NCBI GenBank assembly: GCA_032718475.1
Contig: JAUCBJ010005652.1
Location: 75,676 to 139,675, forward strand
Reading direction: 5' to 3'
DNA from: Nemertoderma westbladi
Lineage: Eukaryota; Animalia; Xenacoelomorpha
DNA: 64,000 bases
Below the pieces are notes generated by a model, which did no database searches, had not been told where the DNA came from, and was given only the letters and a program-made list of their open reading frames with translations. How positions within the stretch are numbered: position 1 is the first letter of the stretch; every line of letters starts with the position of its first letter. Both the position numbers and the translations under genes were made by a program. Below, piece after piece: positions 4,898 to 64,000 of the stretch.

Positions 4898-4908
4898 AAA
4901 TCTATTAT
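4898..4908 (-). promoter_or_regulatory. Non-tRNA primer-binding site of copy A (sense ATAATAGATTT), complementary to LTR 5698-5708
   Basis: Abuts the LTR end, lacks TGG, and has a perfect 11-nt inverted match inside its own LTR. Confidence 0.75.
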
Positions 4909-33941: not shown

Positions 33942-34019
33942 CCGCTCCCAGAAAATGGGATTTAAGTCTATAAAATATACAAAATCACAGTTTCTCAAAT
34001 ACGAAAATACTCTAAACAG

Positions 34020-36909: not shown

Positions 36910-39900
36910 TTATGTTATGGAGTCCCTAGATATTTGTCGGATTAGGGAAGTGGTCGTAGGAAGAGTATCTTGCCTTCCATAGTTTCCGGACAGTTTTTGG
37001 TCTCTTTCCAGTAAACATAAACGACCAGCTGGGTGATTGGGTTGTCGTGTTACTTTCTCCGCTCCCTTGGCCTGTCTAATCTCAGCCGGGTTAAGGTGGG
37101 GAGGCCATTCATCTTCTTCTTTACTTAGGGAGTCGGGTCCACCTAACCAGCCTGGAGTATCTATCAGTTCTTGAGGAGTTGCTCCTCTGGAAGCGATGTC
37201 GGCTGGATTAATCGTCCCAAGGCAATGTCTCCATTGATCTACATTGGAGTTAATATCGTCATTATCTGAGGAGTATGGTGTTCCCTCAGTTGGGTCGTCC
37301 ACATCACTGCTCTCCACTTCCCCCTTTACTTGGTATACCTGTTGTTGAGGTAATCTCTCTTTGAGAGTTCTACGGGAAGGGCCAGTGAAGTACCAACCTA
37401 CTCTAGTTCTTACCGCATAGGTTTGTAGTGGCTGTGGTTGAGCAGGCCGTTTCTCTAATGGCTCGAGCGCCTCATGCGCGTTTTGGCCGATGAGTATTTG
37501 CACTCCAGGATAATCGGTTTGGAATCGAGGTATCTCAAGATGTTGGATGCACTCGTCCTCGTCCCAGTTATAAGGTTCTGCTTGAGTAGTAGCAAAGTTC
37601 TTTATAGCCACCATTTTTACTGACCTTATACCTTGTGTTCCTAACTTATCCTGGGGGGTGGACAACACACCTACATAGTAATCTGCCGTTAGGGTAGATT
37701 TCCAAACCTGCATAATTCCTGACATATTCAATTTAGTCCGGAACTTGGGTTGTCCAGCAAAGATATCTTCGGCTAGTTCTTGATCGATGAATGTTCCTGT
37801 GATGCCGGAGTCAAGTAGGGCGTTCACTATGTAACTCTTGTTGGGACCATGAACTCGAACTTGCACTACAGGAAATTCTCTTATTCCTATGTTGGAAGTT
37901 GGAACTTTCCAAGATGGTTGTTTGTCAAAAGGAGTTGGAGTAAACTCGTCAGTGTCCTTTTCATCCGTAAGTGCTCGATACACTGTGGTATTTATTAGAT
38001 AACAGGATTCGTTGGCATCGGAGAATTCGTCTGTATAGAATCCTTCCCACTCAGAACCTTGGTCAGTGTCGTTCACATCACTGAATTGGACATGTAATTC
38101 GGGCTCACTTACCTGACTCGGGTTGTCTCGTTCGAACTCACTGTGTAACAAAATGTGATGTTTCGCGCCACACTTTGCACACTTTGCGTCGGAGTAACAG
38201 GTTCGCCGTTGGTGTCCTGATCTGAGGCAATTATAGCATAACCGCTTATTCCACAGGACTGTACGTCTGTCTACAGGGGATTTCTTTAGAAATTCAGCAC
38301 ACGCACTCAAACGGTGAGGCCCGTCGCACAGCGCACATTTTGGTTTGATGTTACTCACCTTAACTTGGTTAACGTTATGCACTCTCGTTCTTTCTTCGGG
38401 CTTTCTTCCGTGAATTCTCTTAGGAGACGTAGGAGGAGTTGTTGTTACCTGTTCTCTCCTGTCACTGGTTCGAGACTTGTATTTACTTACGTCTTTATAG
38501 GTCTTGTTGTCATAGTAAGATTTTGCTGTGTCTTTCCCGCTGTCCTCTTCTTGAGAAGCTTGGCTTTCGCCGTCGTCAGTATAACACACTGGTATTATCC
38601 TTCTCCTAGAATCGGGTTTCTCACTTACCTTATTTTCCGATGTTTTCTCTCTGGCCTGCCTTATAAGTTGTAATTTTACTTCACTATCTAAGAAAGACAT
38701 GAGATCAGCCATGGTAGGACTTCGTCGTTGTTGTTCATTCATGTACAACACTTTCTTGTCCCAGCGTGTACATACTCCACCCTTTGGTAAAGTAGAGACT
38801 ACGGCTCCAATAACCATGGAACTCTGATATTCATGCGACTTACCTAACCAGTCCAGTTGTCTACAGATCTCTTGAATTTCATCGGAAAACTCTATAATCC
38901 CGCTACTAAGGAAGTGTCGGGGGGCTACTAATTTTGCATACAAATACTTAGCTATGTTATCCTTGTTACCATACCTGATGTTTAGTGTATCCCAAACTTG
39001 TCTTAATCCATCTGGATGTCCAATAAACTTTAACGCCATTAACTTGGGAGGTCCTTCCAAGCACTTGATGAGGAATCTAAGTTTCTCTCCGTTAGATAGT
39101 ACAGAGTTCTGTATGCTATCTTTGTAATATTCGTTGAAAGGTAACCATTTCATCTCATCTCCATTGAATTTGACGATCTCTCCCACTTTGACCGCTTGGC
39201 GGGCTTCTGTTCTAGCCATCTGACGCGTAAAGCTTTCTTGGACCATCGTGTTATTTAATATCGAATTATCGGTATATAAATTTCTCGGATCATTATCAGG
39301 TCTATAGGGAATATCATTAATAACAGGTTTATAATCACCCTTAATAGGGTTTGCTATAGGAGTTTCAACTTCACTAGCAGTATAGATGCGTGTAGGCTCC
39401 ACACCTTGCGCATGTAGTACTTCAGACCTAACAGGTTGACACAATGTTACAGGGGGTATTGGTATGCCCTTTTGGATATTGACTAATTTGTCGCGTTCTA
39501 GTGCGATACTTTGCTGCACTTCTTGCAACTCTGCTCTACCTTCCCTCACTGTTCCCTTAAGTTGGTGGACAGTCTCCTGCATCTGTCCCAGCAGGAGATT
39601 CATCCCCCGCCGTCCCTCTTCCACCCACTCAACCGCCAAAGCGGGAGTCGCCAACATAGTAGCGGGCTGACGCGGGACGACGGGAGACAAATTATTGATT
39701 TCTCTCTCTGCTATCTGGACAGGGGTATTTGCATGGACTGTTCCACCGGGTACAGGCAGTGTAGTACTATGTAAAGGGAATTTAGAGTTAAGCTCTGGAA
39801 GTACAGGGGTCTCTAACACAGAAGTGACTTTGGGAACGACAGGCCTAATTATTTCAGGCTCATCAACTATTGTAGGGAGTCTTGTGACCTGAATAATTTG

Positions 39901-41109
39901 TTCTGTGGGTTCTGTACTACCTAAATCTGTGCTAGTTAGCTGTCTTTTAACAGCGGGGGGCAAATCAGGCAGTTTATGACGGTGAGATGTTTTTCTACGC
40001 CTGCTTAGACGAGATCTATTTCCTCCGCCTTCAGGATCGGTGGTCTCGCCTTCCTCCGATGATGTGTATCCTTGGCGCTTGGGAGTAGATCGACTCATCA
40101 TCTGCATTTGATTAGCAGTAAACTGTTTATTTATACTGTCTTGTGTCTCTTGCAGATTTTCCAACTCCAGTTGGGTAGTCTGCTCAGAGGCTCTCCGTTC
40201 TGCTTCGGCCACTGCCCTTTCCGCCTTTGCTTCTGCCGCCGCTGCCTTTCTTTTTGCTTCTGCTTCTGCCGCTGCTGCCCTTGCTGCTATTCTTTCTGCT
40301 TCTACTTCTGCCGCCGCTGCCTTTCTTTCTGCTTCTGCTTCTGCCATAGCCGCCGCCTTTTGTTCCTCTATCCTTCTTTTCTTTATTTGTTCTTCTCGGA
40401 CTCTAATGAGGCGGAGTTTTTCATCACATTCAGCTTGGTTTGCAGCTAACATTTCGGCATCGATTGCGTCCAACACAAGCTTGGTTCCTTCACTATTAGG
40501 GGAAAGTCCAGACAGCCGTCTCCTCAACTCTTCGTCTCCTAGGAATCGCTGATAGTCGGACAAATAAATGTCGATAGCGTCTCTAGTTCGCGGCTTCTCT
40601 GCTGATGTTAATTCGCTTTCCACTTCGCTTTCCACCTCGCTTTCCACTTCGCCTTCCACCTCACTTTCCACTTCGCCTTCCACCTCACTTTCCACTTGAG
40701 AAGAAGTGGCGTCGGTTGATTCCCCACAGGCTGGCCGCCCATCATAAACCGTATCCGCCATCTTCGCTCCGCGTTCGGGCGTCCGCTCAACAGTATCCGA
40801 ACTACTGGAGCTATCGGGCCGCTGAGAACTAGGTTCTTGGCTAGGAGGTTGCTGCTGTTTTATAGCTTCTTCTTGATCCCGCTTGACTTGGGCCCGAGTG
40901 CCTATGGCAGACCAACGGCGCTTCACTAACTTCGCAAATTGCGAAATCTTTTCTACCAACCTAGGTTCTGTCACAATCACCGCAGGGGTTGCCCTTCTTA
41001 CAGTATGAGGGGTTTCAGACCTCGGTCTGGGATTCTCTACACTTTGATCCGAGAAACAGGCTGTTGTTTCTAGGAGACTATCTGACAGAGTTTGCCTTGT
41101 GTCAGCCAT
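36910..41109 (-). CDS. BEL/Pao Gag-aspartic protease polyprotein of copy B; RT and integrase absent
   Basis: DUF1759-like KFNGDEMKWLPF; three knuckles CALCDGPHRLSAC, CYNCLRSGHQRRTC, CAKCGAKHHILLH; protease ALLDSG; RNase H tail QWRH..NPADIASRG..WLGGP. Confidence 0.93.
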   Translation of the reverse strand: MADTRQTLSDSLLETTACFSDQSVENPRPRSETPHTVRRATPAVIVTEPRLVEKISQFAKLVKRRWSAIGTRAQVKRDQEEAIKQQQPPSQEPSSQRPDSSSSSDTVERTPERGAKMADTVYDGRPACGESTDATSSQVESEVEGEVESEVEGEVESEVESEVESELTSAEKPRTRDAIDIYLSDYQRFLGDEELRRRLSGLSPNSEGTKLVLDAIDAEMLAANQAECDEKLRLIRVREEQIKKRRIEEQKAAAMAEAEAERKAAAAEVEAERIAARAAAAEAEAKRKAAAAEAKAERAVAEAERRASEQTTQLELENLQETQDSINKQFTANQMQMMSRSTPKRQGYTSSEEGETTDPEGGGNRSRLSRRRKTSHRHKLPDLPPAVKRQLTSTDLGSTEPTEQIIQVTRLPTIVDEPEIIRPVVPKVTSVLETPVLPELNSKFPLHSTTLPVPGGTVHANTPVQIAEREINNLSPVVPRQPATMLATPALAVEWVEEGRRGMNLLLGQMQETVHQLKGTVREGRAELQEVQQSIALERDKLVNIQKGIPIPPVTLCQPVRSEVLHAQGVEPTRIYTASEVETPIANPIKGDYKPVINDIPYRPDNDPRNLYTDNSILNNTMVQESFTRQMARTEARQAVKVGEIVKFNGDEMKWLPFNEYYKDSIQNSVLSNGEKLRFLIKCLEGPPKLMALKFIGHPDGLRQVWDTLNIRYGNKDNIAKYLYAKLVAPRHFLSSGIIEFSDEIQEICRQLDWLGKSHEYQSSMVIGAVVSTLPKGGVCTRWDKKVLYMNEQQRRSPTMADLMSFLDSEVKLQLIRQAREKTSENKVSEKPDSRRRIIPVCYTDDGESQASQEEDSGKDTAKSYYDNKTYKDVSKYKSRTSDRREQVTTTPPTSPKRIHGRKPEERTRVHNVNQVKVSNIKPKCALCDGPHRLSACAEFLKKSPVDRRTVLWNKRLCYNCLRSGHQRRTCYSDAKCAKCGAKHHILLHSEFERDNPSQVSEPELHVQFSDVNDTDQGSEWEGFYTDEFSDANESCYLINTTVYRALTDEKDTDEFTPTPFDKQPSWKVPTSNIGIREFPVVQVRVHGPNKSYIVNALLDSGITGTFIDQELAEDIFAGQPKFRTKLNMSGIMQVWKSTLTADYYVGVLSTPQDKLGTQGIRSVKMVAIKNFATTQAEPYNWDEDECIQHLEIPRFQTDYPGVQILIGQNAHEALEPLEKRPAQPQPLQTYAVRTRVGWYFTGPSRRTLKERLPQQQVYQVKGEVESSDVDDPTEGTPYSSDNDDINSNVDQWRHCLGTINPADIASRGATPQELIDTPGWLGGPDSLSKEEDEWPPHLNPAEIRQAKGAEKVTRQPNHPAGRLCLLERDQKLSGNYGRQDTLPTTTSLIRQISRDSIT

Positions 41110-43364
41110 GTTTGATTGTACAGTCGAATGCCTACTGCTATATTACAGTTAAAGCAAGTCTAGTAATTCAGTATCACTGTTAGCCTAATAATTAATTACC
41201 GATACTGCTACTCAGTGTAGCGTGATATATATATAATATATTAGAATACCGGTATGCTTATAATATATATATAAGTATTATTACAGACTAGATTTGTCAC
41301 AGAGTACCGGTATATAATTTTAGCACAAATATATATAAATATATAATAGGCCTATCGTGAATACCGGTATACAGCCTACACTTATAGTATATAAGTATAA
41401 TTCTGGACTATAATTAATTACAGAGTACCGGTATGATTTCAGCACAAATTTATAGAAATAAATATAATAAGCCTATGGTAAGTACCGGTATGTCAATTAT
41501 TTTTAGAATAATTGAATTCCTGAATATTTTAGGGTTACTTAGTTACTTTAACTTACTTTATTACCGTTATTTAAGCAGTAGTCCAACTGATATTGAGACC
41601 TAGTTGTTGTATGGCAGGCCTACTATTTATAAATCGTTTGAGTTGATTTATAATATTTATATACCCGTTTAAATGGGTTTTTGTCAATATTTGAAATAAA
41701 TGTTATTATTTCTGGGGGTCACTACACGGAAGCTGTGCACTCTCAGTGAAGTGCTATTTATTTGACACTAAAACTGATAATTCTAATTTACCTAAGTTAC
41801 TTAATACTACGAATTACTTACGATACGGGTGAGATTAATTCTCTAATTAAACACAACAAAATATTACGTACGAAATTTTTTAGGGTAATTTTACAGGAAG
41901 TCTACAAACCAGTCCAACAAAGGGTTAGATTTCTGGCTATTACAAAGGACAGGGTACTACGGTATTTAAATAATAAGTAGTAGTAAATATATTGTACTGT
42001 CCAGATAGGAAAATACCACCGCCTGACGACCTATAACCGTATCGCTATAGGTACTACGTTATGTATCACGGATTGTTCCTACCCAGAAGCTAATAGAGCT
42101 AACGAATGTGCCTATCAACCACTTTACAACACAAATATACTGCCTACACTAATTACTTTGGAAAGCACTGTACACTAAACCCTAAATTAGGTACAAGTAC
42201 CGGTATAACAAATAATCAGTAGTTAAATATACTTGAACAGTTAAAAGAACCACGGCATCTGCTGGAGTGACCGAAGCACAAAGTCGTCAGTCTTTACCTA
42301 CGCCAAGCAGCCCTGATGTAGTACCGGGGTTAGTTTAACTATAACGGTATGTATAACAAGCACAATTACTGTAGGAATAAACTTGGGGACATGAATGTTG
42401 CGAATAATCGCATAAACTCTGAATAATAAATATTACGCTACCCGTACAGAATACTCAAACAAATACAAACCAAACGCTGGCAGACTACTATTAAGCCTAA
42501 ACAAACTACAGTATATGTGCAGATTCTGAAACTGTTAGTTAGTATGCGTTCTAACACGGTAGTACGACTTACTCTTTAAGAGGGGATTGTCCTTACAGCA
42601 TATGGCTGCCCCAACTTACTAACGGCACTTGATCAGACCAACTCTACACACGCAGCAATCCCTTCAGACCCAAAAATAGCCAGACAACAATCCAGCCTAC
42701 AAAATATTTGAGTAATAACTATTACGGTACCTGAACAGACCACACAAACAAACACAGACTAAAACACTGGCAGACTACGATCAAGCCTAAACAAACTACA
42801 GTATGTGCAGATTCTGAGACTGTTAGTTAGTATGCGTTCTAACACGGTAGTACGACTTATTCTTTAAGAGGGGATTGACCTTCAGCATATGGCTGCCCCA
42901 ACTTACTAACGGCACTTGATCAGACCAACTCTACACACGCCGTAATCTCTCCAAACTCAACAACAGTCAGACAGCAGCTCAGCCTACAATTATCTGAACA
43001 ATCTGAGCAGGGTCACACGCCTTCTGCTCAATATTAGCCTACTAGTAAATAAAACCGACAGAAATAAGTAAACTATACAAAAGAATGAGGGGTGATCAAT
43101 CCCTATTCCCCTGGCAGCCTACAATATACAATAGATCACAATCGAAATAATACTAAATGTACTTGTACAGCAGTACCGGTACCGGTGATGACAGTTAGGC
43201 CTACTGACCTACAGAAGTACCGGTTCAGTTTTACCGGTCACTACGGTATTTTGCAACCTTATTGCTTACTGCAATAAGATCGATAACTGTTACTGTTCGA
43301 CAGAACAGTATTAAACTGTATTTAATGCCTACACTTGCAACCTTATTGCTTACTGCAATAAGAT

Positions 43365-43376
43365 TATAACTGTTAC
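43365..43376 (-). promoter_or_regulatory. Non-tRNA primer-binding site of copy B (sense GTAACAGTTATA), complementary to LTR 44120-44131 (33449-33460 in the 3' LTR)
   Basis: Perfect 12-nt inverted match ending exactly at the LTR edge. Confidence 0.78.
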
Positions 43377-44612
43377 TGTTCGCGCTTTTGAAGACCTTTA
43401 GCAGTTTAACCTGCCAAAATTTATATGTCTTTTAGTTAATTAACACACCTTTAGCATACGACAATATTTTATGCTAATAAACAAAACATTAGCCGAAGCC
43501 AGCCCATGCGCGATCATTCACCCGATGGATCTACACCCGGGAGGCTGAATTCGGATGCTTAGATTTTATTATTGCAGTGTAAGGTTGCAGTGTAAGCCTA
43601 CTGTATTATTCGATAGATCACTAATAATTAATTTCTGACAGATATTATTAACTTTCGGGAAATATTAACAGTTCCTTTAGGACGTGGCGCTCTATCTATT
43701 TAAACAGAGCTAGGACTTATACTAAACGCAACGATAAGGCTTATGATTAAAGTATAAGTCGCATTCTTTAGGAAATGCTTTGTTACCAGTCACATCACAC
43801 TCACAATCATGCACACTATTCTGCCGACCGTCAGTACATTTGATCACACATGAAGAGAACAGCAATTGACTCAGGTAGTGTCCACTAAATAACATTAGAT
43901 TCAATACACACCACATTGATATAAATCGCAATTGTTATATATAGCCCGCCTCTCTAACCTGTAGTGTATCAAGAAAATTGGGAATTTGGGTGATTTATCC
44001 GTATTATCCAAAGAGCAATATTTCCATCAACAAATAGGTACAATTAATAACTGACGGTAAATAGCAGTACAAACAATATGATTAGTGCAGTTAAATTAAG
44101 TGAGGTAACACCGCCGCCGGTAACAGTTATACTTTCTATAATCTAAGCAGTTTACTAGAGTTCTTACCAAAAAGCCGGTGTTTCTGGCTTGGACAGCAAT
44201 AACAACAAAGTATCAAGTAAAAACAGTAAGACTGAACACTCTCCTTATGATCGGCTGAAAAGCTACACGTCGACAGGAAAAATCGCTCTGATTGGCTCAA
44301 GCCAAACAAAGAACTATGCGTCCAATGGCTGTTTCCATGTCAGCAACCAGCTGTTAGATGTCGTAATATGAATCATCACGGCTAAGCTGTGAAAGGTAGT
44401 TGGTGCATTACAGGTTTTTTGCTTTACCATGTCCGCCAAAACACGTATATAGCAGAATGATTTTTATGTCCGTTAAAACACCTGTAACGGTACCTTGCGG
44501 GCGAGGGGAATATATATACAGTTAGAGAACCTTTTTAGAGTATTCCAGCGCCTGGGGGGAAACTGGATTGCGAAGCAAAAGGGGCCAGTTATATCCCACA
44601 GAAGCTTTTACA
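43377..44612 (-). repeat. 5' LTR of copy B
   Basis: Same sequence and length as 32706-33941; followed by the TSD. Confidence 0.97.
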
Positions 44613-47800: not shown

Positions 47801-48215
47801 GTCACCCATGGGTGCGATATTTTCACACCCTCCGAGAACATTGCCGTTCTAGAACATGTTCGCAAATGTCGCGCCTTTTATTTTAAACTGTGGTGTGGAG
47901 TAAGCAAGTTCTCCTCCTCCACTGCGATACTAGACGCCGTAGACAACGTCGTCAACCCCGATTGTGACATCAGGTTGGGAGGCCTGTCCGGCTTCCGCCG
48001 CCGTGCAGCGGCGTTGCTTCTCTCCAACGGGTGTCATCAGACTCTTTGCAGCAGTCCCAACTGTTGGAAAGCGGATGATGGTTGCATCTGCTTGCTGTGC
48101 ATCAATCCGGCTGACACTAAATTGCACTTCAAATCTTGCCCTGGCATTCCCCCATGCGCGACTGACCTTCGATGCGCTCTTTTCCTTCTCACCCTGGGTC
48201 TCCCCAAATAATTAT
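44900..48215 (+). mobile_element. 5'-truncated non-LTR retrotransposon (LINE; RT plus C-terminal CCHC), interrupted at 45018-46737
   Basis: Removing the insert restores LDARISATEVTEAVKDQKAHKAAGPDRI. Motifs YRGIAIL, QFGFRK, FVDFTKAFDSV, QGDKLSPLLF, frameshifted ADD, FNYLG, CLLC..H..SCP. Confidence 0.88.
45018..46737. mobile_element. Non-autonomous CACTA/EnSpm-like element (CCC...GGG, 2-bp TSD AA)
   Basis: TIR CCCAGTTAAACATGA / TCATGTTTAACTGGG. AA is duplicated and the LINE frame is restored on removal. Subterminal CATATG/CACAT repeats; a second right-end-like copy ends at 45623. Confidence 0.88.
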
Positions 48216-49345: not shown

Positions 49346-49730
49346 TCTGGGTATAAACTCCACCGTATCAGCTGGCAATCAGGGCAATATGCGGCATGTT
49401 AGTGTTTCGCCATATTCGGCAGTACATAGAGGCCTACCCCTTCATGGGGGTTGTTATGTATATATTAACTTAAAGGAAGAACAGGAGTCTTACACCCCCA
49501 ATAAAAAATATAGAATCAGGACATTTAGCCCAAAATATACTTCTCGACACCTAGGGTCATCGAAGAACAACAAACACACAAACAAATATAAATACATGCT
49601 AAACATAGAGTTATGTCTGTTAGTCAGTATGTCGTTAACATCAATTATTATAACGAACCTGCCTATTAATAGGCCAGGGTAGTTCTTGTCAAGAGTTGAG
49701 CCGTTTAAAAACACGATGTGGTTGTGTGTG

Positions 49731-50934
49731 TGTTCGCGCTTTCAGACCTTTGGCAGTTTAACCCGCCAAATTAGGATGTCTTCTAGATAATAAATCACCT
49801 TTAGCCTATGACAAGTATTTAATTCACTACACTAGTCGAAACCAATCTGTGCGCGATCATTCACCCGTTGGATATACCCGGGAGATTGGGTTCGACGGCT
49901 TAATTTTATTGCTATGTAAGCCTAATGTATTATTCGACTGACAGTATTATATAATCTCTGACAATATTATTCACCTTCGGGAAATATTAACAGTTCCTTT
50001 AGGACGTGGCGCTCTATCTATATAAACAGAGTTATGACTTAAACTACTCACAACGATATGGCTTAGTTACAATTCACATATATGGCGCATTCTTTAGGAA
50101 ATGCTTCGTTATCAGTCTCACTCATACACAATGCTGCACAATACTGCACACTGATCTGCCGATCTTCACTGATTTTAGTCACATATAAAAGGAACACGGA
50201 CCGAATCATGTAGGGTCTATCAAATAACATTAGATTCACTTCAAACCACTCAACATAGGTCGCAATCATTTATCTGTAACCTTTCTCTCTTACCTTCGGT
50301 ATATCAAGAATATTGGGTTTTCGGGGTTATTTGTCGTTATTCCAAATATAATAATTCATCAACCATATTATGAAGAACTGACAGTAAATAGCAGTATAAC
50401 AATATAAAAGTATGCACAGTGTTACACAGTATGCAGTGTATGCAGTACTGCAGTATGCAGTATGCAGACATCAGACATCAGATAACGGATATATGTCCTT
50501 ATAATTAAGCCTACTAGTGTAAGACTAAAAACTGAAAACACGGAGGTGCCAAAAGCCGGTTCTTAGGCTCTGGGCAAAACATAACACTGAACTACTGAGT
50601 TTCTGTATACACCTCCAACACAGAGACAACAAACGCTCTGATTGGTCAACCTGAACAACGAGAGAACAAAGAAACAAAGAAACGTCGACGTGGCAATATC
50701 AGCTGCTAGCCGTCGTCATGGTAGCGACACTGTTTTCAAGAGTATCGAGCTTTTACGTCACGGAATTACGGATTATGTCCTCTAAAGTACAAATACAGAA
50801 GAAATAGCTTTTATGTCCGCTAAAACACCAGTACAGCAAGGACACGGCCTTTTTATGCCTGGTAAACCAACTACAGAGTATTTTACGGGAAAAATAAGGA
50901 AAAATAACCGGACAATTCAGCAAAAGCTTTTACA
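49731..50934 (-). repeat. 3' LTR of copy C (1204 bp)
   Basis: TGTTCGCGC...AGCTTTTACA, followed by CCGCTCCCAGAAAATGGG as in copy B. Confidence 0.95.
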
Positions 50935-51012
50935 CCGCTCCCAGAAAATGGGATTTTCAGTCTATAAAATATAAAAATCACAGTTTCTAAAACATAAAGA
51001 TACTCTAAACAG

Positions 51013-52375
51013 TTAGTCTTTCTTACGCAGACGGCGTTTACGCAGTTTTTTGAGGCTAGCAAGAGTCTTTTTCTCTTTGGGGGGAGCCACTTTACTAGGA
51101 GGGCCATAACTCCTGGGTGAAGGGTGCAATATGATTGCATCAGAAGGTCTAGGTTTATGGTCGAGGTATCTGCCGTTTCGATATGCTTCTCCTCGAGCTG
51201 ATTTTCCTCCACTCGTAGCTGGATACGTTCATCCAAAAACTCTCGCAGAGAATAGGATCGTCCAAGTTCGATAACTTCTTAGAGATTCTGGATTTCCCAA
51301 TCGAATTGAGATAAGGCCAATTCGTTTATCGATTGGACTTACTGTTATAACTTACGTTTATCTGAACAAACGCAGGTTTCTTTTTTGATCTTTATAGAAT
51401 AGCGTTTAACTCGTTTCGTACAACGCTCTCCTTCACCTTGATGAGGGGTTGTATCGCGTTAAACGGGACAACCATACGGTTGGATAGTGATATTAGGTGT
51501 CTGCGTCATAATCCGGCTAGGTAAGATGGGCGGCTAGCTAGAAATCACTGTCGGAGTGTTACCGATTAATTGTTAGGGTAGCACTAGATCTTTGAACAGT
51601 GAATACAGTCCGCGAGGATCCGCGACACCACCAGGATCGCAGGTCTGAGGTCCAACTAAGGAATGAGGAGGTTTGACCGAGTATTCCGGGACTCTGATCG
51701 TAGGTTTACTCCAGGATCGTTCGAGCCGAGTGAGCATAGGTGATACGTCAACAAGTTTCGGTTTACGTGGATGTTTATGTCTTTCCGTTTATTAGTTGGG
51801 TCTAGGGCATTTATCGTAATAATACCAAAGACGCACGTCTGGTAGGGTAAACGCGGGTGATATTTATTTGTTGTTACAATGCTTCTATCAAGAATTCCAA
51901 ATATACGTTGGAGTTACCGCGTTTATTTGTTTCTTTAGTGTCTTTTCTTTCGAGTCGATTTCGAATAGAATTTTCGCATTCGAATTTCAGTTTATGGTTC
52001 CGACTCCGCTGGGCAGGATATATAGTCGACATAGTCCGTATTATGTTAATCGATAGGATGACCAGTAGTTAAGAAGCCCATATACGTACCATTACGCTGC
52101 GTATATTGAGCAGCGAATTTTCTATAGTCCAACTCACGCGTGAGCTGCTCTTGGGACATTGGCGGTTCGATATAACGACCATCGTCCTCCGCAGCAGTTG
52201 GACTAACGTCGCCGCGTATTAAGCTATCAACAAACGCTTGTAAAAGTAGGGTATATCGCTCCCCGATACCAAGACCATCTTCTATCAACTCCGTCATATC
52301 TGCTATATATGAGTTTATCCATATTATAATGAGTCCACATTTAGGCGAGCGGGCGTCGCTGCCTACCCCAATCAA
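51013..52375 (-). CDS. Accessory 3' coding region of copy C (homologous to 34020-35330)
   Basis: 52046..52375 shares AFVDSLIRG..EDDGRYIEPPMSQEQLTRELDYRK..FLTTGHPID. The 3' end reads LHPSPRSYGPPSKVAPPKEKKTLASLKKLRKRRLRKKD* with the same stop position as B. Confidence 0.6.
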
Positions 52376-54145
52376 CCCCCGGACAGTACGAGATCCTCAG
52401 CGCCGATGTGTCGTCGCCGCCGTACTTTCGCCAACGACGTAGCCGCACAACGACAACGACAACCGGCACAAGTCACTCGACTGTCCGTCCCAAAGGCTTA
52501 GATGTACTTCAGGTTTTCCTTGGAGAGTTAGGTTACTTTTACGATTGCGACTAGCTACTGTAAACACACCTTAGCAGTAACATTCACCTATAAACTCACA
52601 AATACCACACAACTGGTCACAACTACGCACATTCGGGCCATTTGTCCGTTAGTCAATGCCTTCCAGAATGTCACTGTATTATTATGTATCCTTGGATACT
52701 AGTAGTGCGCTATTTATTCCCTATGCTATTCAATGGGACAAGCTTTCTATTGTTCTTTTAACTCAATTCTAATTCTAGCGTGGTTGTTGCTATGGTGACA
52801 TTATGCAAAGCTAGCGGTAGAATTAGGGTAATTCCAATGCATACAGATCTGGGATGTTATTTAATAGTAATTCTTTAATAGTCAATGTCCTGTTTTATAC
52901 ATGACTTTATGAATTTTATCGGCTATTGACTATGTTTGGGAGACTTTCGCACACTCATACGCATAATAAGATAAATCTCCGCTCCCTTGATCTATTAATT
53001 AATGGAATTTTGGGAATGTTATAAATTGCGTAAAAATGGCAATTTATTAAATTCATTAAAAGGCATGAATTTAAATTTATTCCCTGAAATTTTATTATTT
53101 GATAATTAAATGGGCATATTTTGATTCTAGAACATGTCTAGGGACACAAGATCCTTAATTCTAAGAAAATTGTCTCTTTAAGAATATCGGTAAATGCTAC
53201 GATATCTTAATTGACTAGAATTGTTGAAGGATCTGAATTTTACAGATTTTGACTTATTTGATTTGTAAATATTAAATAATTAATATTTGAGATGGGCACC
53301 GATTTATTCCAGAACTTGTCTGGGGACGTTAACCACTGATTCTAGAATTTGTCTTTCAAGTATATCGGTGGGTGCCGCGATATCTTAATCGACTAGAATT
53401 ACAGATGGTCAAAGGGTTTAACAGATTTATTTTGCGTTATACGCTACTGTTAAAGGGACATCACGCTACTATATGTATTATTTAATATACGGTATGAGAG
53501 CAATATCGCACGAAGCAATGTCAGTGTGAAGAGGCAAGTCGTTTCCAAGGTCTACCCAGAGCTTGGTTTAGCCGAGACACGAGGATCTGAACTTTGCATT
53601 CCTAATACTCTGCCTACCAATAATACTTGAATATAGTAGTGGCTTTATTGTACTTTAATAAGTACAGACATTTCATCTTACTGTAGCTACGTATTTATAA
53701 TATAATACGGACAGTAAGGAAGGAGAAAAAGAATTATTTCTTGCCGTCGCATTAAATATAATATATACGTAATTAAGTAATAAACGCGAATATATATTGC
53801 ACTAATCTACTAAATAATCGCTAAAATAACATTCTACTGAATAAAATTAAAGAAAACGATTATAATAAAATTACATAGTAATACATACGTAAATATAAAA
53901 ATAATAAAATAATATAAAATAATAGAGTCACACACCCACTCCATATGTTGCTACGTTATGGAGTCCCTAGATGTTTGAAGGATTAGGGAGGTGGTCGTGG
54001 GAAGAGAATCTTGCCTTCCACAGTTTCCGGAGAGTCCTCCATTCCCTTCCGGTAAACACAAACGACCGACTGGGTGATTGAGTCGCTGCATCCCGAATAC
54101 AATTCCAGGTTTCCTCTTCGTCCTGGAATAGTGACGATAGAAACA

Positions 54146-57100
54146 TCACTCAAAGTATATGACGGCGTTACAAAGCCGATTCCAGGAGCTATAGTGGTCC
54201 GTCGCTCCCTGCAGGAGAGGTAAGAGTCCCTGCGAGACGTCTGATGTTCCAGAGCTCCAATCGCTCCCTCTGATCTTCATGAAGGATCCACTCGCGGTGG
54301 GGAGGTCCAGATCCACGGCGTCGTCCCTGGCAATATGTAATACCGACAGATCTATCCCGGGTTCAAATAACTCCGCTCCACCCGTCCGGGTTTTAGGTTT
54401 AACTTTCTCCGCTCCCTTGGCTGGTCTAATCTCAGTCGGAGTAAGATGGGGAGACCATTCATCCTCCTTACTCAGGAAGTCGGGTTCACCTAACCGGTCT
54501 GTAGTATCTGTCAGTTCTTGAGGAGTTGCTCCTCTGGAAGCGATATCAGTTGGATTAAACTTCTTGGGGCAATATCTCCATTGATCTACATTGGAGCTAA
54601 GATTGTCATTATCTGAGGAGTGTGGTGTTCCCTCAGTTGGGTCGTCTCCCTCACTAGTATCATCTTCCCATTCACTCACCTGGCGGACGCGATCTTGAAG
54701 CAGTCTTTCCCTGAGCGTTCTACGGGAAGGTCCAGTAAGGTACCAACCTACTCTAGTTCTTACCGCATAGGTCTGTAGTGGCTGCGGTTGAGCAGGTCGT
54801 TTCTCTAATGTCTCCAGCGCCTCATGCGCGTTTTGGCCGATGAGTATTTGCACTCCAGGATAATCAGTCTGGAATCGAGGTATGTTAAGATGTTGGATGC
54901 TCTCATCCTCGTCCCAATTATAAAGGTCTGCTTGAGTAGTAGCGAAGTTCTTTATAGCCACCATTTTCACTGACCTTATGCTATGTTCTCCTAGTTCGTC
55001 CTGGGGGGTGGACAACGCGCCTACATAATAATCAGCTGTTACTGTAGATTTCCAAACTTGCATGATTCCTGACATGTTTAGCTTGGTTCCGAACTTGGGT
55101 TGTCCAGCAAAGATGACTTCGGCTAGTTCTTTATCGATGAATGTTCCTGTGCTACCGGAGTCCAGGAGGGCGTTCACTATATAGCTCTTCTGAGGTCCGT
55201 GGACCCGTAACTGGACTACAGGAAATTCTCGGATTCCTATATTGGAAGTTGGCGCTTTCCAAGATGGTTGTTGATCGGAAGTAGTTAAGGTAGGGTCGCT
55301 GTCTGTGTCTTTCTCATACACGAGTGCTCGATACACTGCGGTGGTGTTTATTAGGTAACAGGATTCGTTTTGGTCGGAGAACTCGTCCGTATAGAATCCT
55401 TCCATCTCAGATTGATCAGTGTCGTTCACATCACTGAATTGGACATGTAGTTCGGACTCACTTACCTGACTCGGGCTGTTTCGTTCGAATTCCGTGTGCA
55501 ACAAGATATGATGTTTTGCGCCGCACTTTGCACACCTTGCGTCGGAGTTACAGGTTCGCCGTTGGTGTCCTCGTCTGAGGCAATTATAACACAACCGCTT
55601 ATCCCACATGACTTCACGTCTATCCTTTAGTGATTTCCTCAGGAATTTATCACACGCATTTAAACGGTGGGGCCCGTCGCACAGCACACATTTCGGCTTG
55701 ATGTTACTTACTTTAACCTGTGCTATGTGGTGCACACTTGTTCTTTCCTCGGGCTTTCTCACCTGAATTCTTTTAGGAGACGTAGGAAGGGTTTTTTGTA
55801 CCGGTTCCCTTCTGTCATTGGGTCGAGACTCGGATTTACTTACCTGATCTTTAGGCATTTTATTGACATAATAAGATCTGTCAGTGTCTTTCCCGCTGTC
55901 CTCTCCTTGAGAAGTTTGGCTTTCACCGTCGTCGGTATAACATACTGGTGTTACACTTCTCCTAGAAACGGGTTTCTCACTTACCTTGTTTTCCAATGTC
56001 TTCTCTCTGGACTGCCTTAGGAGCTGTAATTTCACTTCTCTATCTAAGAATGACATGAGATCAGCCATGGTAGGGTCTCGTCGTTGTTGTTCCATCATAT
56101 ATAACACTTTCTTATCCCAGCGTGTACCTACTCCACCCTTCGGTAAAGTAGAAGCCACTGCTCTAATAACCATAGCACTCTGATACTCATGAGACTTACC
56201 TAGCCAATCTAATTGTCTGCAGATCTCCTGAATTTCATCGGAAAACTCTATAATCCCGCTGCTAATAAACTTTCGGGGCGCTACCAACTTTGCATACAAA
56301 TACCCAGCTATGTTATTCCTATTACCATACCTGATGTTTAGTGTATCCCAAACTTGTCTTAATCCGTCTGGATGTCCAATAAACCTTAACGCCATTAACT
56401 TGGGAGATCCTTCCAAGCACTCGATGAGGTATCTAAGTTTTTCTCCATTAGATAGTACAGAGTTCTGTATGTTATCTTTGTAATATTCATTAAAAGGTAA
56501 CCATTTCATCTCATCTCCATTGAACTTGACGATCTCTCCCACCTTTACCGCTTGCCGGGCTTCGGTTCTAGCCATTTGACGCGTAAAACTTTCTTGGGCC
56601 ATCGTGTTATTTAATATAGAATTATCGATATATAAATTTCTCGGATTATGATCAGTTCTATAGGGAATATCATTATCAACAGGTCTATAATTACCCTTAA
56701 TAGGGTTCACTATAGGAGTTTCTACTTCGCTAGCAGTATAGATGCGTGTAGGCTCCACACCTTGCGCATGAGATACTTCAGACCTAACGGGTTGACACAT
56801 TGTTACAGAGGGTGGTGGTATACCCTTTTTTAAGTTTACTAATTTATCGCGTTCTAACGCGATACTTTGCTGCACTTCTTGCAACTCTAACTTACTTTCC
56901 CTCACTGTTCCTTTTAAATGTTGGACAGTCCCTTCCAACTCTCGGACCTGTTGGGAAGAGCGTATCCGATTCTCCTTCATCTCTCCTAGGAGAATATCCA
57001 TCCCCCGCCGTCTCTCGTCTACCCAATCAACCGCCGAAACGGGATCCGCCAACGTCGTAGCGGGCAAACGAGGGACAACGGGCGACAAATTTGGAATATT

Positions 57101-58150
57101 TCGCTCGGGGTCCAGGACCTGAACTGTCTCCTGGGCAGTTCTACGGGGCACAGGTAGCTTAGTGCTATGCAGAGGGAATTTATAGGTAGCTTCAGGGAGC
57201 ACAGGTGTATCTATTACCGAAGGGGTGATTTCAAGAACAGGCCTACCTATTTCAGGCTCATCTACTATAGTAGGGAGTCTTTCTATTGTAATTATTTGGT
57301 CTGTGGGTTCTGTACTCTCTAAGTTGGTGTTATTTAGTTGCCTTCTAACAGCTGGAGGCAAATCAGGCAATTTCTGACGGTGGAATGTTCTTTTACGTCT
57401 GCTTAGGCGGGATCGATTTCCTCCGCCTTCAGTGTCGGTGGTATCGCCTTCCTCAGATGATGTATAACCTTGTCTTTTGGGAGTAGATCGATTCATCATC
57501 TGCATATTACTAGCTGTTAACTGTTTATTAAAGTTATCTTGCCTCTCTTGAAGATTTTCCAACTCTAGTTGGGTTGTCTCTTCAGATGCCCTCCGTTCTG
57601 CTTCTGCCACTGCTATCTTTCTTTCCGCTTCTGCCGCTGCCGCTTTCCTTTCCGCTTCTACGGCTGCAGCTGCCGCCTTTGCCTCTGCCGCTGCCGCTTT
57701 CCTTTCCGCTTCTACGGCTGCAGCTGCCGCTTTTGCCTCTGCCGCTGCCGCTTTTATTGCTGCAGCTGCCGCTTTTGCCTCTGCCGCTGCCTCTGCTGCC
57801 TTTCTTTCCGCTTCTGCCGCTGCCACTGCCGCTGCTGCTGTCTTTCTATCTTCTATACGTTTTTTCCTTACTTGCTCTTCTTGAACTCTATTGATGCGGA
57901 GGAGTTCATCAAATTTAGCTTGGTTCGCCGCTAACATTTCCGCATCAATTGCGTCCACCACAAGCTTGGTTCCTTCACTATTAGGGCTAAGCCCCTCCAG
58001 CCTTCTCCTCAACTCGTCATCTCCTAAAAAACGCTGATAGTCTGACAGATAGATGTCAATGGCATCCCTCTTATGCGGTTTCTCTGCTGTCACTTCGCTC
58101 TCGGTTGTATCTAGTAGACTGTCTGACAGGTTCTGCTTTGCGTCAGACAT
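54146..58150 (-). CDS. BEL/Pao Gag-aspartic protease polyprotein of copy C; RT and integrase absent
   Basis: Same domains as B: three knuckles, ALLDSGSTGTFI, QWRY..NPTDIASRG. Ends in the pre-integrase-like YSSWNRLCNAVIYF. Confidence 0.93.
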   Translation of the reverse strand: MSDAKQNLSDSLLDTTESEVTAEKPHKRDAIDIYLSDYQRFLGDDELRRRLEGLSPNSEGTKLVVDAIDAEMLAANQAKFDELLRINRVQEEQVRKKRIEDRKTAAAAVAAAEAERKAAEAAAEAKAAAAAIKAAAAEAKAAAAAVEAERKAAAAEAKAAAAAVEAERKAAAAEAERKIAVAEAERRASEETTQLELENLQERQDNFNKQLTASNMQMMNRSTPKRQGYTSSEEGDTTDTEGGGNRSRLSRRKRTFHRQKLPDLPPAVRRQLNNTNLESTEPTDQIITIERLPTIVDEPEIGRPVLEITPSVIDTPVLPEATYKFPLHSTKLPVPRRTAQETVQVLDPERNIPNLSPVVPRLPATTLADPVSAVDWVDERRRGMDILLGEMKENRIRSSQQVRELEGTVQHLKGTVRESKLELQEVQQSIALERDKLVNLKKGIPPPSVTMCQPVRSEVSHAQGVEPTRIYTASEVETPIVNPIKGNYRPVDNDIPYRTDHNPRNLYIDNSILNNTMAQESFTRQMARTEARQAVKVGEIVKFNGDEMKWLPFNEYYKDNIQNSVLSNGEKLRYLIECLEGSPKLMALRFIGHPDGLRQVWDTLNIRYGNRNNIAGYLYAKLVAPRKFISSGIIEFSDEIQEICRQLDWLGKSHEYQSAMVIRAVASTLPKGGVGTRWDKKVLYMMEQQRRDPTMADLMSFLDREVKLQLLRQSREKTLENKVSEKPVSRRSVTPVCYTDDGESQTSQGEDSGKDTDRSYYVNKMPKDQVSKSESRPNDRREPVQKTLPTSPKRIQVRKPEERTSVHHIAQVKVSNIKPKCVLCDGPHRLNACDKFLRKSLKDRREVMWDKRLCYNCLRRGHQRRTCNSDARCAKCGAKHHILLHTEFERNSPSQVSESELHVQFSDVNDTDQSEMEGFYTDEFSDQNESCYLINTTAVYRALVYEKDTDSDPTLTTSDQQPSWKAPTSNIGIREFPVVQLRVHGPQKSYIVNALLDSGSTGTFIDKELAEVIFAGQPKFGTKLNMSGIMQVWKSTVTADYYVGALSTPQDELGEHSIRSVKMVAIKNFATTQADLYNWDEDESIQHLNIPRFQTDYPGVQILIGQNAHEALETLEKRPAQPQPLQTYAVRTRVGWYLTGPSRRTLRERLLQDRVRQVSEWEDDTSEGDDPTEGTPHSSDNDNLSSNVDQWRYCPKKFNPTDIASRGATPQELTDTTDRLGEPDFLSKEDEWSPHLTPTEIRPAKGAEKVKPKTRTGGAELFEPGIDLSVLHIARDDAVDLDLPTASGSFMKIRGSDWSSGTSDVSQGLLPLLQGATDHYSSWNRLCNAVIYFE

Positions 58151-60515
58151 GCTTATGTGTACAGTTGAATGTCTACTGCTGTATTACAGTCTGAGCAAGT
58201 CTAGTAACTCAGTATTAACTGCTAGCCTAGTAATTAATTACCGGTACTGCTACTCAGTGTAGCGTGATATATATAATATATTAGAATACCGGTATGCTTA
58301 TAGTATATATAACTATTATTACAGACTAGGTTTATCACAGAATACCGGTATAATTTTAGCACAAATATATATAAATATATAATAGGCCTATCGGAATACC
58401 GGTATACAGCTTACAGTTTGTAGTATATATAATTCTGGACTAGAATTAATTACAAGTACCGGTATAATTTCAGCCTAAATTTATAGAAATAAAGATAATA
58501 GGCCTATCGTAAATACCGGTATGCAGTTTACACATATAGTGTATATATATAAGTATAATTACAAACTAGAATTAATTACAGAATACCGGTATGATTTCAA
58601 CCTAAAATTTATAGAAATAAATATAATAAGCCTATTGTAAATACCGGTATATCAATTATTTTAAATAACTGAATTTCTGAATTTCAAGGGTTACTTGGTT
58701 ACCTTACTTACTTTATTACCGTTATTTGAGCAGTAATCCAACTGATATTGAGACCTAATGGTTGTATGGTAGGCCTACTATTTATAAATCGTTAGATTTG
58801 ATTTATAATATATATATACCCGTTTTAATGGGTTTTGTCAATGTTTGAAATAAATGTTATTATTTCTGGGGAGTAATCACTACACAAAGCGGTGCGCTTT
58901 CAGTGAAGTGTTACTTATAGGACACTAAAACAAATAATGCTAATTTACCTAAGTTACTTAATACTACAAATTACGTACAATTCGGGTGAGATTACAATCT
59001 CTAAATAAACACAAAAATTTACAAAAAACACAAAATACGAATTTTTAGGGTAATTTTACAAGAAGTCTACAAACCAGCCTAACAAAGGGTTAGAAATCTG
59101 GTTATTACAACGGACAGGGTACTGCGGTATTTGAAAATAATACGTAGTAGTAAATACACTGCGTTGTCCAGATAGGAAAATACCACCGCCTGACGACCTA
59201 TAGCCGTATCGCTATAGGTTCTACGTTATGTATCACGGAGTGTTCCTACCTAGAAGTTAATAGAGCTAATCGAACGTGCCTATCAACCACTTTACAACAC
59301 AAATATAATGCCTACACTAATTACTTCGGAAAGTACTGTACAGTAAACCCTAAATTAGGTACGAGTACTTGTACAACAGATAATCAGTAGTTAAATATAC
59401 TTGAACAGCTAAAAGAACCACGGCATCTGCTGGAGTGACCGATGCACAAAATCACCAGTCTTTACCTACGCCAAGCAGCCCGTGTAGTACCGGGGTTAAT
59501 TTAACTATAGCCGTATGTATAACAAACACAATTACTGTAGGAACAAACTTGGGGAATTAATGTTGCGAATAATCGCATAAACTCTGAATAATAAATATTA
59601 CGCTACGCGTACAAACTACTCAAACAAAATGCAGACCGAACACTGACAGACTACTATCAAGCCTAAACAAACTACAGGACATGCAGACTCCGAAATGATT
59701 AGGGAGTATGCGTTCTAACCCAGTAGTACGACTTATTCTTTAGTTGGGGGTTTACCTTACAGCGTTCGCTGCCCCTACTTCCTAACCGTACTTAATCGGA
59801 CAAGTGATCTACACACGCTGCAATCCGCTCAGGCCTAATAACAACCAGACAACTATCCAGCCTACAAATTATCTAAATAAAATTATATGCTACCCGTACA
59901 GACTTACACAAACAAAGTACAGACTAAACGATGACAGACTACTCTCAAGCCTAAATAAACTACAGGACATGCAGACTCCGAAATGATTAGGGAGTATGCG
60001 TTCTAACCCAATAGTACGACTTATTCTTTAGTTGGGGGTTTACCTTACAGCATCTGCTGCCCCTACTTCCTAACCGTACTCAATCGGACAGGTGCTCTAC
60101 ACATACTGTAATCCGTTCAGACCTAACAGCAATCAGACAACAGCTCAGCCTACAAATTGTCTGTACAATCTGATCAGGTTTACACGCCTTCTGTTCAATA
60201 CTGGCCTACTAACAAATAAAACTGACAGAAATAAGTAAGCTCCAAAAGAAACAAGGGGTGTACAGTCCCTAATCTCTTAAACAGCCTACCGGTATACAAC
60301 AATCAAATCGAATAATACTAATGTACTTATACGGGAAGTACCGGTTAGGACAGTTAGGCCTACGGACCTACAGAAGTACCGGTTCTGGCAGTTGGACCTA
60401 CGGGCCTACGGCAGTACCGGTTCTGGCAGTTGGGCCTACTGACCTACAGATGGACCGTTCAGGTTTACCGGTTGACCGGTACTTTCAACTTTATTGCTTA
60501 CTGCAATAAAGAAGC

Positions 60516-60527
60516 TATATCCGTTAT
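60516..60527 (-). promoter_or_regulatory. Non-tRNA primer-binding site of copy C (sense ATAACGGATATA), complementary to LTR 50482-50493
   Basis: Perfect 12-nt inverted match ending at the LTR edge; seen via the intact 3' LTR. Confidence 0.78.
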
Positions 60528-60878
60528 TGTTCGCGCTTTCAGACCTTTGGCAGTTTAACCCGCCAAATTAGGATGTCTTCTAGATAATAAATCACCTTTA
60601 GCCTATGACAAGTATTTAATTCACTACACTAGTCGAAACCAATCTGTGCGCGATCATTCACCCGTTGGATATACCCGGGAGATTGGGTTCGACGGCTTAA
60701 TTTTATTGCTATGTAAGCCTAATGTATTATTCGACTGACAGTATTATATAATCTCTGACAATATTATTCACCTTCGGGAAATATTAACAGTTCCTTTAGG
60801 ACGTGGCGCTCTATCTATATAAACAGAGTTATGACTTAAACTACTCACAACGATATGGCTTAGTTACAATTCACATAT
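60528..60878 (-). repeat. U5-side part of the 5' LTR of copy C
   Basis: Matches 49731-50081, then breaks abruptly. Confidence 0.93.
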
Positions 60879-63800
60879 CCCTGCTAACCAGACACGCTAC
60901 ACGCTATTATACCAAACGTTTGTTTATATGCTTGAATCATGTTGACATGTTTTTTTTCTAAACTTGTTTTAATCAACATGTTATTTTAACATCTAAATAA
61001 CATAATATCCAATCATGTTATAATCAAACATTTGTTGATCACGTTTTAATGATACCTAAATGTAACATGTTTTATCATGTAATTATTTAACATTTGTTTT
61101 ACATGTTATTGTGTAACATAAATCATACATGTTTATTCCAGCTGTTTGTTAAATGCTACTTTGTCGTGTTGAACAAACGTCCTGCACATCATTGCCAATA
61201 TGTCTTAAGGCTGTTTGAATAAACCGCCTAAAATTTACCGCCAAATTCGTTTATAGGCCTATAAATCATGCAGCAGTGCATGCAGTACATCAGTCAGTCA
61301 GTAGACACTCCACTGCCTGCCCCAGCCTACCAGCACCCTCTCCATGCACTCCAGCCACATTCTGAGAGCTTGACAGTAGTGCTGCAGTGTGTAGGCCAGC
61401 TGTTTACTGGTTTAAGTGCTGCAATAGGGTTGACCATACTGCCATATGTTTGTTTACTGCCGTATGCCTATATTAACTGTTTAAGTTATTTTTAATTAAG
61501 CTTCATACTGTCTGACTGTCATAAAATGATAAATCTTTTTATATTATACATTATATGTTATATAGGCCTACATAACATATATAATACATAATATATGTCA
61601 TATACATTATATATTATTTATGTACATTATATAGGCCTAGCAGCCTAGCCTCGCTAATTGTATTGTAATACCAGAATACAGTAATATGTCTGTATGTAAT
61701 GCAGTCAGGCAGTGCAGTGCCAGTAATTCGATGACGACGACAGTTTAGATTGGGCTCTGTCTTCCTGGCGCTGGTTGGTCGAAACAACAGGCAAGCGGCA
61801 AGGGCTGCACTGGCAGACTGGAAAAATATTATGGCCTCCTCGAAATGCCGGCCTACTGTTACCGGTACGTTGGAAAGAATTTTCGAATCCAGATCTTCTG
61901 TCAACTGTCAAGTTGGCCCACATTTAATGCGAAGGTTCTTCACTTAACAGGTTTGTATTGAACTTGAATAGGCTTCTTACACATCGTTATTTCAGTGATT
62001 CAAGTGATTAAAATCCTAATCCTGTAATCTATTTGGATCAAATAGAGGGAAAAAGCGCCGGCGGCCGGAAGTAAATTACACATGCGGTCCCAGGCAGCCA
62101 GCTAAAGATACGCATCAGATTCTGGCGATGAGGTTATTATTTTACTTACTACTAGGCCTTGCTGTTAGGTTTGGCCCACTTGGTACTTTGGGCCGTTTAT
62201 AAATCGTCAGAGCGTGCATATGTATACTGTAATTTAAAATAAAACATGCCTTACTCTGGCTATCTATGGTAGGTAAGTAAATGTTTGCTTTATTTTTTAC
62301 TCATTTCCTCTTTATAAACCAGTCCCCAGTGCAGTGGCAATGTGAAACAGTCTGTGATGGGTTGTGGTGACTTGTGCACGTTGATCTAATTGCTCCAATG
62401 CTACATATGTATATATATTATTATCATTTTAGGTGGAATATATGAGCGACAATGAATCCAATCATGTTTCCAATACGATACTCACACTGATTACCCAGAC
62501 AACTAACAATACGTTGATCATTGATACTCAGAGGTGAAGCCTCTCCCTCTATCTACAACCTAACCCTATTCTAAGACAACACTAAACTCTAGACTTACCT
62601 AACCAAACCCTTTCACTAAGCTACCACTATATATCCCATGGCGATATTTTCTCGAAATATTTTTCCAGTCTCGATGTTTTATATATCGAGACGCTTTTTT
62701 ATACTTTTGGAAGCAGAGACAGAAGTTGGGCGAGACAGAAGTCACAGCCACTCAATGCAATGTCACAACCACTCAATGCTATGTCACAGCCGCTCAATGC
62801 TATGTCACAGCCGCTCAATGCTATGTCACAGCCACTCAAAGCTATGTCACAGACACTCAACGCTATGTCACAGCCACTCAACGCTATCTCACAGGCGCTC
62901 AATGCCATGTCACAGCCACTCAATGCAATGTCACAACCACTCAATGCTATGTCACAGCCGCTCAATGCTATGTCACAGCCGCTCAATGCTATGTCATACC
63001 CACTCAACGCTATGCCACAGCCACCCAACGCTATGTCACAGCCACAGCCACTCAACGCTATCTCACAGGCGCTCAATGCCATGTCACAGCCACTCAACGC
63101 TATGTCACAACCACGCAATGCTATGCCACAGCCACCCAACGCTATGTCACAGCCACTCAACGCTATGTCACAGACACTCAACGCTATGTCACAGCCACTC
63201 AACGTATTGTCACAGCCACCCAACGCTTTGTCACAACAACCACTCAACCGCTATGCCACACTGCCACAGCCACCCAACGCTATGTCACATCACAACCACC
63301 CAACGCTATGTCACAGCCGCCCAATGCTATGTCACATCCACTCAATGCTTTGTCACAGCCACTCAACGCTATGTCACAGCCACTCAACGCTATGTCACAG
63401 CCACTCAACGCTATGTCACAGCCAATCAACGCTAGCCACCCAACGTTATGTCACAGCCAATCAACGCTATGTCACAGCCACTCAATGCTATGCCACAGTC
63501 ACCCAACGCTATGTCACAGCCGCCCAATGCTATGTCACAGCCGCTCAACGCTATGCCACAGCCACCCAACGCTATGTCACATCACAACCACCCAACGCTA
63601 TGTCACAGCCGCTCAATGCTATGTCACAGCCGCTCAATGCTATGTCACAGCCACTCAAAGCTATGTCACAGCCACTCAACGCTATGTCACAGCCAATCAA
63701 CGCTATGTCACAGCCACTCAATGCTATGCCACAGCCACCCAACGCTATGTCACAGCCGCTCAATGCTATGTCACAGCCGATCAATGCGTCACAGCCGCTC

Positions 63801-64000
63801 AATGCTTTGTCACAGCCACTCAAAGCTATGTCACAGCCACTCAACGCTATGTCACAGTTACTCAACGCTATGTCACAGCCACTCAACGCTATGCCACAGC
63901 CACTCAATTCTATGCCACAGCCACCCAACGCTATGTCACAGTCACCCAACGCTGGCCACCCATCGCTGGCCACCCAACGCTGTGTCACAGTCACCCAACG
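60879..64000. mobile_element. Probable CACTA-like insertion into the copy C LTR (other end not seen)
   Basis: LTR identity stops at CACATAT|CCCTGCTAACC. The CCC start and subterminal AACATGTT repeats resemble the other CCC..GGG elements. The right boundary is not visible. Confidence 0.5.
62740..64000. repeat. 21-bp satellite (GCTATGTCACAGCCACTCAAC)
   Basis: Direct tandem periodicity running to the window end. Confidence 0.95.

Follow-up and report, generated by a model that had tools for sequence, protein, structure and literature searches.

Primer-binding sites complementary to their own long terminal repeat in BEL/Pao-type elements of Nemertoderma westbladi: a candidate case of Tf1-like self-priming

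Excerpts of the papers on Tf1, a long terminal repeat (LTR) retrotransposon of Schizosaccharomyces pombe, describe an element that primes reverse transcription with its own RNA. [quoted passage not shown] About half of the Tf1 cDNA ends, on the 3' side, in a DNA copy of the PBS (PMC11042837). Two further duplexes, formed by PBS-adjacent sequence with the LTR, are required, and in this pretzel of three duplexes both PBS-adjacent arms pair with the LTR downstream of the primer (bioRxiv 10.1101/2022.12.06.519325). Here we report that three related LTR elements, copies A, B and C, in a 64-kb stretch of the Nemertoderma westbladi genome (contig JAUCBJ010005652.1, positions 75,676 to 139,675 of the forward strand; hereafter the window) each have a PBS that is an exact complement of a site in their own LTR.

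The same arrangement, an 11-nt LTR sequence complementary to an LTR-adjoining PBS, is given in the consulted parts of two papers for Tf1 and Tf2 of S. pombe, Tj1 and Tosmo1-3, all of the Tf1/sushi group of Ty3/gypsy chromoviruses (PMC7175516; PMC4600332). The Tf1 PBS begins ATAAC, as does that of copy C, and A and B each differ from it at one of these five letters (PMC11042837, in excerpt). An excerpt of a third paper treats self-priming as described for the Tf1/sushi gypsy group and predicted, in plants, for the Tcn1 clade and the Ty1/copia TAR lineage (Houba, Osr-1); the signature used was an LTR complement of at least 10 base pairs (bp) starting 0-5 nt after the 5' LTR (PMC6317226). Copies A, B and C all have such a complement, of at least 10 nt and within that offset, although TAR and Tcn1 belong to other superfamilies and other hosts. 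Unlike Tf1, the window element has a BEL/Pao Gag, a 1.2-kb LTR, a primer site about 750 nt from the PBS and no reverse transcriptase (RT) of its own; its start site is a predicted one, and the flanking helices are clear in B only.

[quoted passage not shown] No paper on BEL/Pao self-priming was found in the literature searched, outside which lay most subscription papers and repeat-database entries. The terms primer, PBS and tRNA are absent from the main text of PMC3118150 and of PMC554778. That such self-priming is absent from print is not established. Cer7 of Caenorhabditis elegans is BEL-like and has a proposed primer sequence of its own, in a tRNA-like internal insert that is not LTR-derived.

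The primer-binding site and its LTR partner

In copy C the PBS, TATATCCGTTAT at 60516-60527, directly abuts the LTR end at 60528, and ATAACGGATATA at 50482-50493 in the 3' LTR is its exact complement. An earlier note on this DNA had reported this 12-nt pairing, and both 12-mers and the abutting PBS are where it placed them. They are the sole two matches of the pair in the window, against 0.01 expected. The features on which the analysis draws are as follows (window coordinates; strand given where assigned).

4898-4908, minus: PBS of copy A; its 11-nt complement lies at 5698-5708 in its own LTR
4909-6120, minus: 5' LTR of copy A (PBS and LTR together 4898..6120); the element extends past the window start
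32706..44612, minus: copy B, 11,907 nt, with the target-site duplication (TSD) CAGCC on both sides
43365-43376, minus: PBS of copy B; LTR partner sites at 33449-33460 and 44120-44131
49726..49730: left flank of copy C, GTGTG, a candidate TSD known from the left side only
49731..50934, minus: 3' LTR of copy C, 1204 nt, TG...CA in the sense of the element
50482..50493, minus: candidate self-primer of copy C, LTR position 442-453, exact PBS complement
50640..50646, minus: CCAAT box shared by the three copies, with the candidate primer 153-172 nt downstream of it
50935..50945, minus: purine-rich tract, candidate polypurine tract (PPT) of copy C, abutting the 3' LTR and identical in B
54149..58183, minus: 1345-codon frame of copy C, with Gag, three Cys/His clusters, a protease-like motif and a short late piece
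60496..60511, minus: post-PBS arm of copy C, for which folding predicts either a helix with the LTR at 60702-60718 or a local hairpin
60516..60527, minus: PBS of copy C, with no spacer before the LTR end at 60528
60528..60878, minus: remaining 5' LTR of copy C, 351 nt, all 351 identical to the 3' LTR; contains the predicted helix of the unique 5' region (U5)
60879..64000: unrelated DNA past the 5' LTR of copy C, which interrupts or truncates the LTR

All three copies lie on the minus strand, an orientation that for C is fixed by the purine-rich tract and the open reading frame. For the pairing in C the 3' LTR was used, since the site in the 5' LTR falls outside the window; the rest of that 5' LTR was not found in 60879-64000. 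Judged by LTR identity, B (both LTRs identical across 1236 nt) and C are recent insertions.

With the match anchored at the LTR end, the longest exact complement that a copy has in its own LTR measures 11 nt in A, 12 in B and 12 in C, each at offset 0, while each PBS matches the LTRs of the other copies over merely 5-6 nt. In 5000 dinucleotide shuffles of each copy's own LTR, an anchored match of equal length arose 6 (A), 2 (B) and 1 (C) times, and 26, 2 and 4 times, respectively, with offsets of 0-5 allowed. Complementarity by chance has in its favour that roughly one in 9,500 internal 12-mers has a complement in the LTR (1/9553 in C). It is refuted by the cross-copy comparison, in which the three copies carry different letters at one and the same position and each matches only itself, and we regard it as having almost no probability.

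The primer sites start at LTR position 413 in A, 482 in B and 442 in C, directly past a common upstream motif and 153-172 nt after the CCAAT box. MAFFT misaligned B at this site, and positional homology was taken from the CCAAT distance and the common motif. Of the 11 pair positions, 5 vary among the copies. Watson-Crick pairs make up 33 of 33, the variable position that adjoins the LTR end among them, and G-U does not occur. C and B differ at 3 of the 12 letters, which counted from the LTR end are pair positions 1, 6 and 8; at each of them the LTR partner carries the complement, in agreement with the earlier note. That note also held that C shows the pairing independently. The pairing stands, but independence is overstated because B and C, whose LTRs are 64.7% identical, descend from one ancestor and carry a single inherited trait in which substitutions arose independently. 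A third PBS complementary to its own LTR is that of copy A.

The same variation bears on the possibility that priming falls to a tRNA of the host, or a piece of one, with the LTR match as a by-product. The ICTV profile, which assigns the family an 18-nt PBS for tRNA-Arg or tRNA-Gly (PMC8742986), speaks for it. A fixed host primer would keep the PBS constant, whereas any two copies have PBSs that differ at 3-4 of 11 positions, next to 60 nt of U5 that are 78-82% identical, and each PBS tracks its own LTR; this variation weighs against tRNA priming. The trinucleotide TGG is absent from the first 40 nt past the LTR in A, B and C, ARAGORN predicted 0 tRNA genes in the window, and Rfam returned two weak, below-threshold matches, none at an LTR or PBS. 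We consider tRNA priming very improbable.

When four sequencing runs were matched to the LTR of B, they yielded 14,678, 3,817, 262 and 72 contig pieces with many variant letters, which is consistent with a family of many diverged copies. One additional base in the PBS of B was seen in 20, 6, 2 and 2 contigs of the four runs, and among the matches listed no piece joined a PBS to its LTR site.

Relationship to BEL/Pao elements

The frames of C and B match PF03564 (DUF1759, the BEL/Pao Gag) with E values of 1.5e-11 and 8.5e-12. All 9 of the 9 database protein matches are BEL-type polyproteins by Pfam content, the best of them carrying PF03564, PF05380 and PF18701. Identity to these polyproteins is 21-28% in the main alignment and 43% in one short piece; the short late piece of the C frame corresponds to about residue 1250-1400 of a BEL polyprotein. 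A tblastn search of the window copies with the 9 full polyproteins gave matches in Gag, in the protease region and in a single later stretch of 45-60 amino acids, and none for RT or integrase. With Belpaoviridae (Semotivirus) the element thus shares the DUF1759 Gag, Cys/His clusters, a protease-like motif, 1.2-kb TG...CA LTRs, a 5-bp TSD (two-sided in B, one-sided in C) and a PPT; it differs in that the 18-nt tRNA-complementary PBS is absent and a Pol with RT, RNase H and integrase was not detected. Because Gag and protease are present and RT and integrase undetected, we interpret the window elements as non-autonomous BEL/Pao derivatives. Their Gag is BEL-type and Ty3/gypsy chromovirus proteins are lacking, so the A-C type of element is not a member of the Tf1/sushi group, though it may work alike. 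The recent movement of B and C implies a helper element. A conserved 24-nt LTR motif had 0 matches in viral and metagenome contigs, and protein queries found no relative in viral contigs.

Coding relatives were sought by scanning with an alignment of these 9 BEL proteins, which gave 79 metagenome loci. Ten of these had a defined 5' LTR end and were usable; 69 were set aside for missing flanks, repeat or LTR end. The loci are distinct families, except for L057 and L058. Nine of the ten have a self-complement of 10-15 nt located 2-4 nt from the LTR end. In two it is contiguous (11 and 10 nt, reached by 1 and 2 per 300 shuffles), and in six it spans a GT-AG intron inside the LTR (11-15 nt, 0-1 per 300 shuffles). 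A seventh spliced match, in L002, was seen on widening the offset and is without a shuffle control of its own, bringing the loci with spliced matches to 7 of 10 (L002, L017, L025, L033, L036, L059 and L064). The introns in these seven measure 76-164 nt, all begin GTAAG and have a pyrimidine-rich acceptor, features that the search, which required only GT and AG, had not requested. The first exon supplies just 4-9 nt of each junction-spanning match. L012, which has a poorly defined LTR end, gave no convincing self-complement, and TGG was found in the first 10 nt of 0 of the 10 loci. Where the relatives have a spacer of 2-4 nt between LTR end and PBS, the PBS of the window family abuts the LTR and needs no splice.

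A blind scan for LTR ends covered 9 further loci (8 distinct), in which that end was not known beforehand. The match was equalled by 1 of 40 shuffles in L018, by 2 and 1 of 40 in L057 and L058, and by 3 of 40 in L052. L018 is a weaker case of a PBS complementary to an exon junction. A splice-made primer was also considered for A, B and C and was rejected, as the spliced solutions of at least 10 nt were only trivial 1-nt extensions in B.

Proposed mechanism and leader folding

Copy C probably primes reverse transcription with its own RNA, in the manner of Tf1. On this reading, which we draw from sequence, transcription would start at or adjoining the LTR site, and the first 11-12 nt of the RNA would fold over and pair with the PBS. 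A helper element would likely supply the RNase H that releases these 11-12 nt as the primer. Plus-strand synthesis would then copy the primer into the PBS, by which a change in the LTR site would enter the PBS in the next round. Such copying would explain fast drift with perfect pairing and no wobble, and each double change may therefore be one mutation plus copying and not two selected mutations. The primer duplex ends flush with the LTR, which is where the 3' end of a primer must sit. All three sites read T, A and then 10 nt, compatible with an 11-nt RNA started from a pyrimidine-purine step.

The leader was folded as native stretches, in which we looked for a U5-end helix and a post-PBS helix as in Tf1. 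A U5-end helix involving an invariant LTR 6-mer is predicted with a probability of 0.98 in C (60531-60536 with 60648-60653) and 0.6 in B. For the post-PBS arm the predicted partner is LTR sequence about 190-220 nt ahead of the LTR end. In B this helix spans some 28 bp, and none of its controls (233 internal, 200 shuffled) equalled it; a 16-nt duplication in the LTR of B is matched there by B-specific post-PBS sequence (43327-43361 with 43568-43597). The 19-nt core of the arm has its best LTR site in A just where B would lead one to expect it (equalled by 0 of 1107 other windows), and in C a near-best site lies there (equalled by 12 of 1099). In a three-row alignment 98.8% of the flanking-helix cells pair, with 1 double and 4 single changes. 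The folds suggest a Tf1-like pretzel with two flanking duplexes, strong in B and partial in A and C.

These helices also bear on whether the PBS duplex is instead a long-range RNA structure, serving packaging, dimerisation or translation control, with another RNA as primer. The leader is rich in predicted conserved helices, and DNA synthesis from the site is itself deduced, both of which favour such a role. Against it, the PBS duplex of all three copies stops right at the edge of the LTR and contains no G-U pair, whereas in the neighbouring helices G-U accounts for 4 one-sided changes among 27 pairs; the duplex therefore appears more like copied than folded sequence. No other primer site presents itself either, with TGG lacking in the 40 nt and tRNA genes lacking in the window. 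We judge a purely structural role to be improbable.

A further alternative keeps self-priming and places the site inside the transcript or near its 3' end, the primer being freed by cuts on one or both sides or the RNA 3' end folding back onto the PBS. It would accommodate the missing TATA and the long R-U5 (R, the repeat region of the LTR) considered below, and in the seven relatives with spliced matches a first-exon match of 4-9 nt requires either a tiny first exon or an internal primer. Yet pairing stops sharply at 11-12 nt, as would be expected of a discrete primer that begins at the RNA end, and the poly(A)-like signals come well downstream of the site, around LTR position 1025-1120. We regard this alternative as unlikely, though as the least unlikely of those weighed here.

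Several observations weigh against Tf1-like priming from the RNA 5' end and its extension to other BEL elements. The start of transcription at or beside the primer site is a prediction from sequence features; none of A, B and C has a TATA near -30 of the site, as is true of all relatives but one of the ten (L064), and a start there implies an R-U5 of about 760-800 nt, which is long. Three related copies only were compared, and no helper element was found. In A folding gives no U5-end helix, and the 38-nt arm duplex does not surpass its controls there (equalled by 132 of 200 shuffles) or in C (equalled by 162 of 237 internal controls and by 84 of 200 shuffles), a local hairpin competing with it in both. 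Covariation in the flanking helices does not rise above that of shuffles, 162 of 500 of which reached it. Whole-leader folds give the primer-PBS pair a probability of about 0.4 in A and 0 in B, where the stronger arm helix crosses the primer-PBS pairs as a pseudoknot, a form beyond the model of the fold program. The relatives are distant (21-28% identity), and the blind scan, treated here as weak, was mostly at chance level, its other five loci being equalled by 10-38 of 40 shuffles.

Two further features of the LTR were noted. Donor-like AGGT(T/A)AG at LTR 640-653 and acceptor-like TGTCAG at 971-975 are present in all three LTRs and mark out, downstream of the primer site, a possible intron of about 330 nt (in C, window 50295-49958, minus), whose removal would make the long R region shorter. 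All three LTRs also share an invariant block of about 35 nt (window 49977-50026 and homologues) beside a TATA-like motif on the antisense strand; an antisense promoter, a branch region or a structure are candidates for it.

Surroundings and wider meaning

The DNA that breaks the 5' LTR of C (60879-62600) begins CCCT after ATAT and has no other copy or matching inverted end in the window; we presume that it may be the end of a DNA transposon. Long uninterrupted frames at 18105-19886, 22086-22934 and 26822-29347 carry Glyco_hydro_20, Ribosomal_S10 and MMR_HSR1 GTPase domains, and the host genes of the window look intron-poor. Two RVT_1 frames, at 12115-13365 and 46443-48211, are apparent fragments of non-LTR retrotransposons, the former lying mostly between 118-nt inverted repeats (11238-11355 and 13793-13910). 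Tandem arrays occupy 62666-64000 (21-nt unit), 15443-18130 (43 nt) and 7968-8627 (30 nt).

The self-complementary PBS of the window elements is, at the level of sequence, a real and well-supported signature. The mechanism is already known from Tf1, which limits surprise, and copy C is a confirming case and not an independent origin. On balance we lean towards the view that a broad animal branch of BEL/Pao left tRNA priming, with a contiguous LTR primer in the window family and a primer made by splicing an LTR intron in 7 of 10 coding relatives. If this is true, self-priming would extend from gypsy, where it is shown, and copia, where it is predicted, to the third LTR superfamily and so occur in all three, and host splicing would gate reverse transcription in many such elements. 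A co-varying, self-complementary PBS provides an alternative to tRNA priming that can be tested and, for elements with no annotated PBS, a simple rule at the level of sequence. Self-priming would also free such elements from control through tRNA supply or tRNA fragments.

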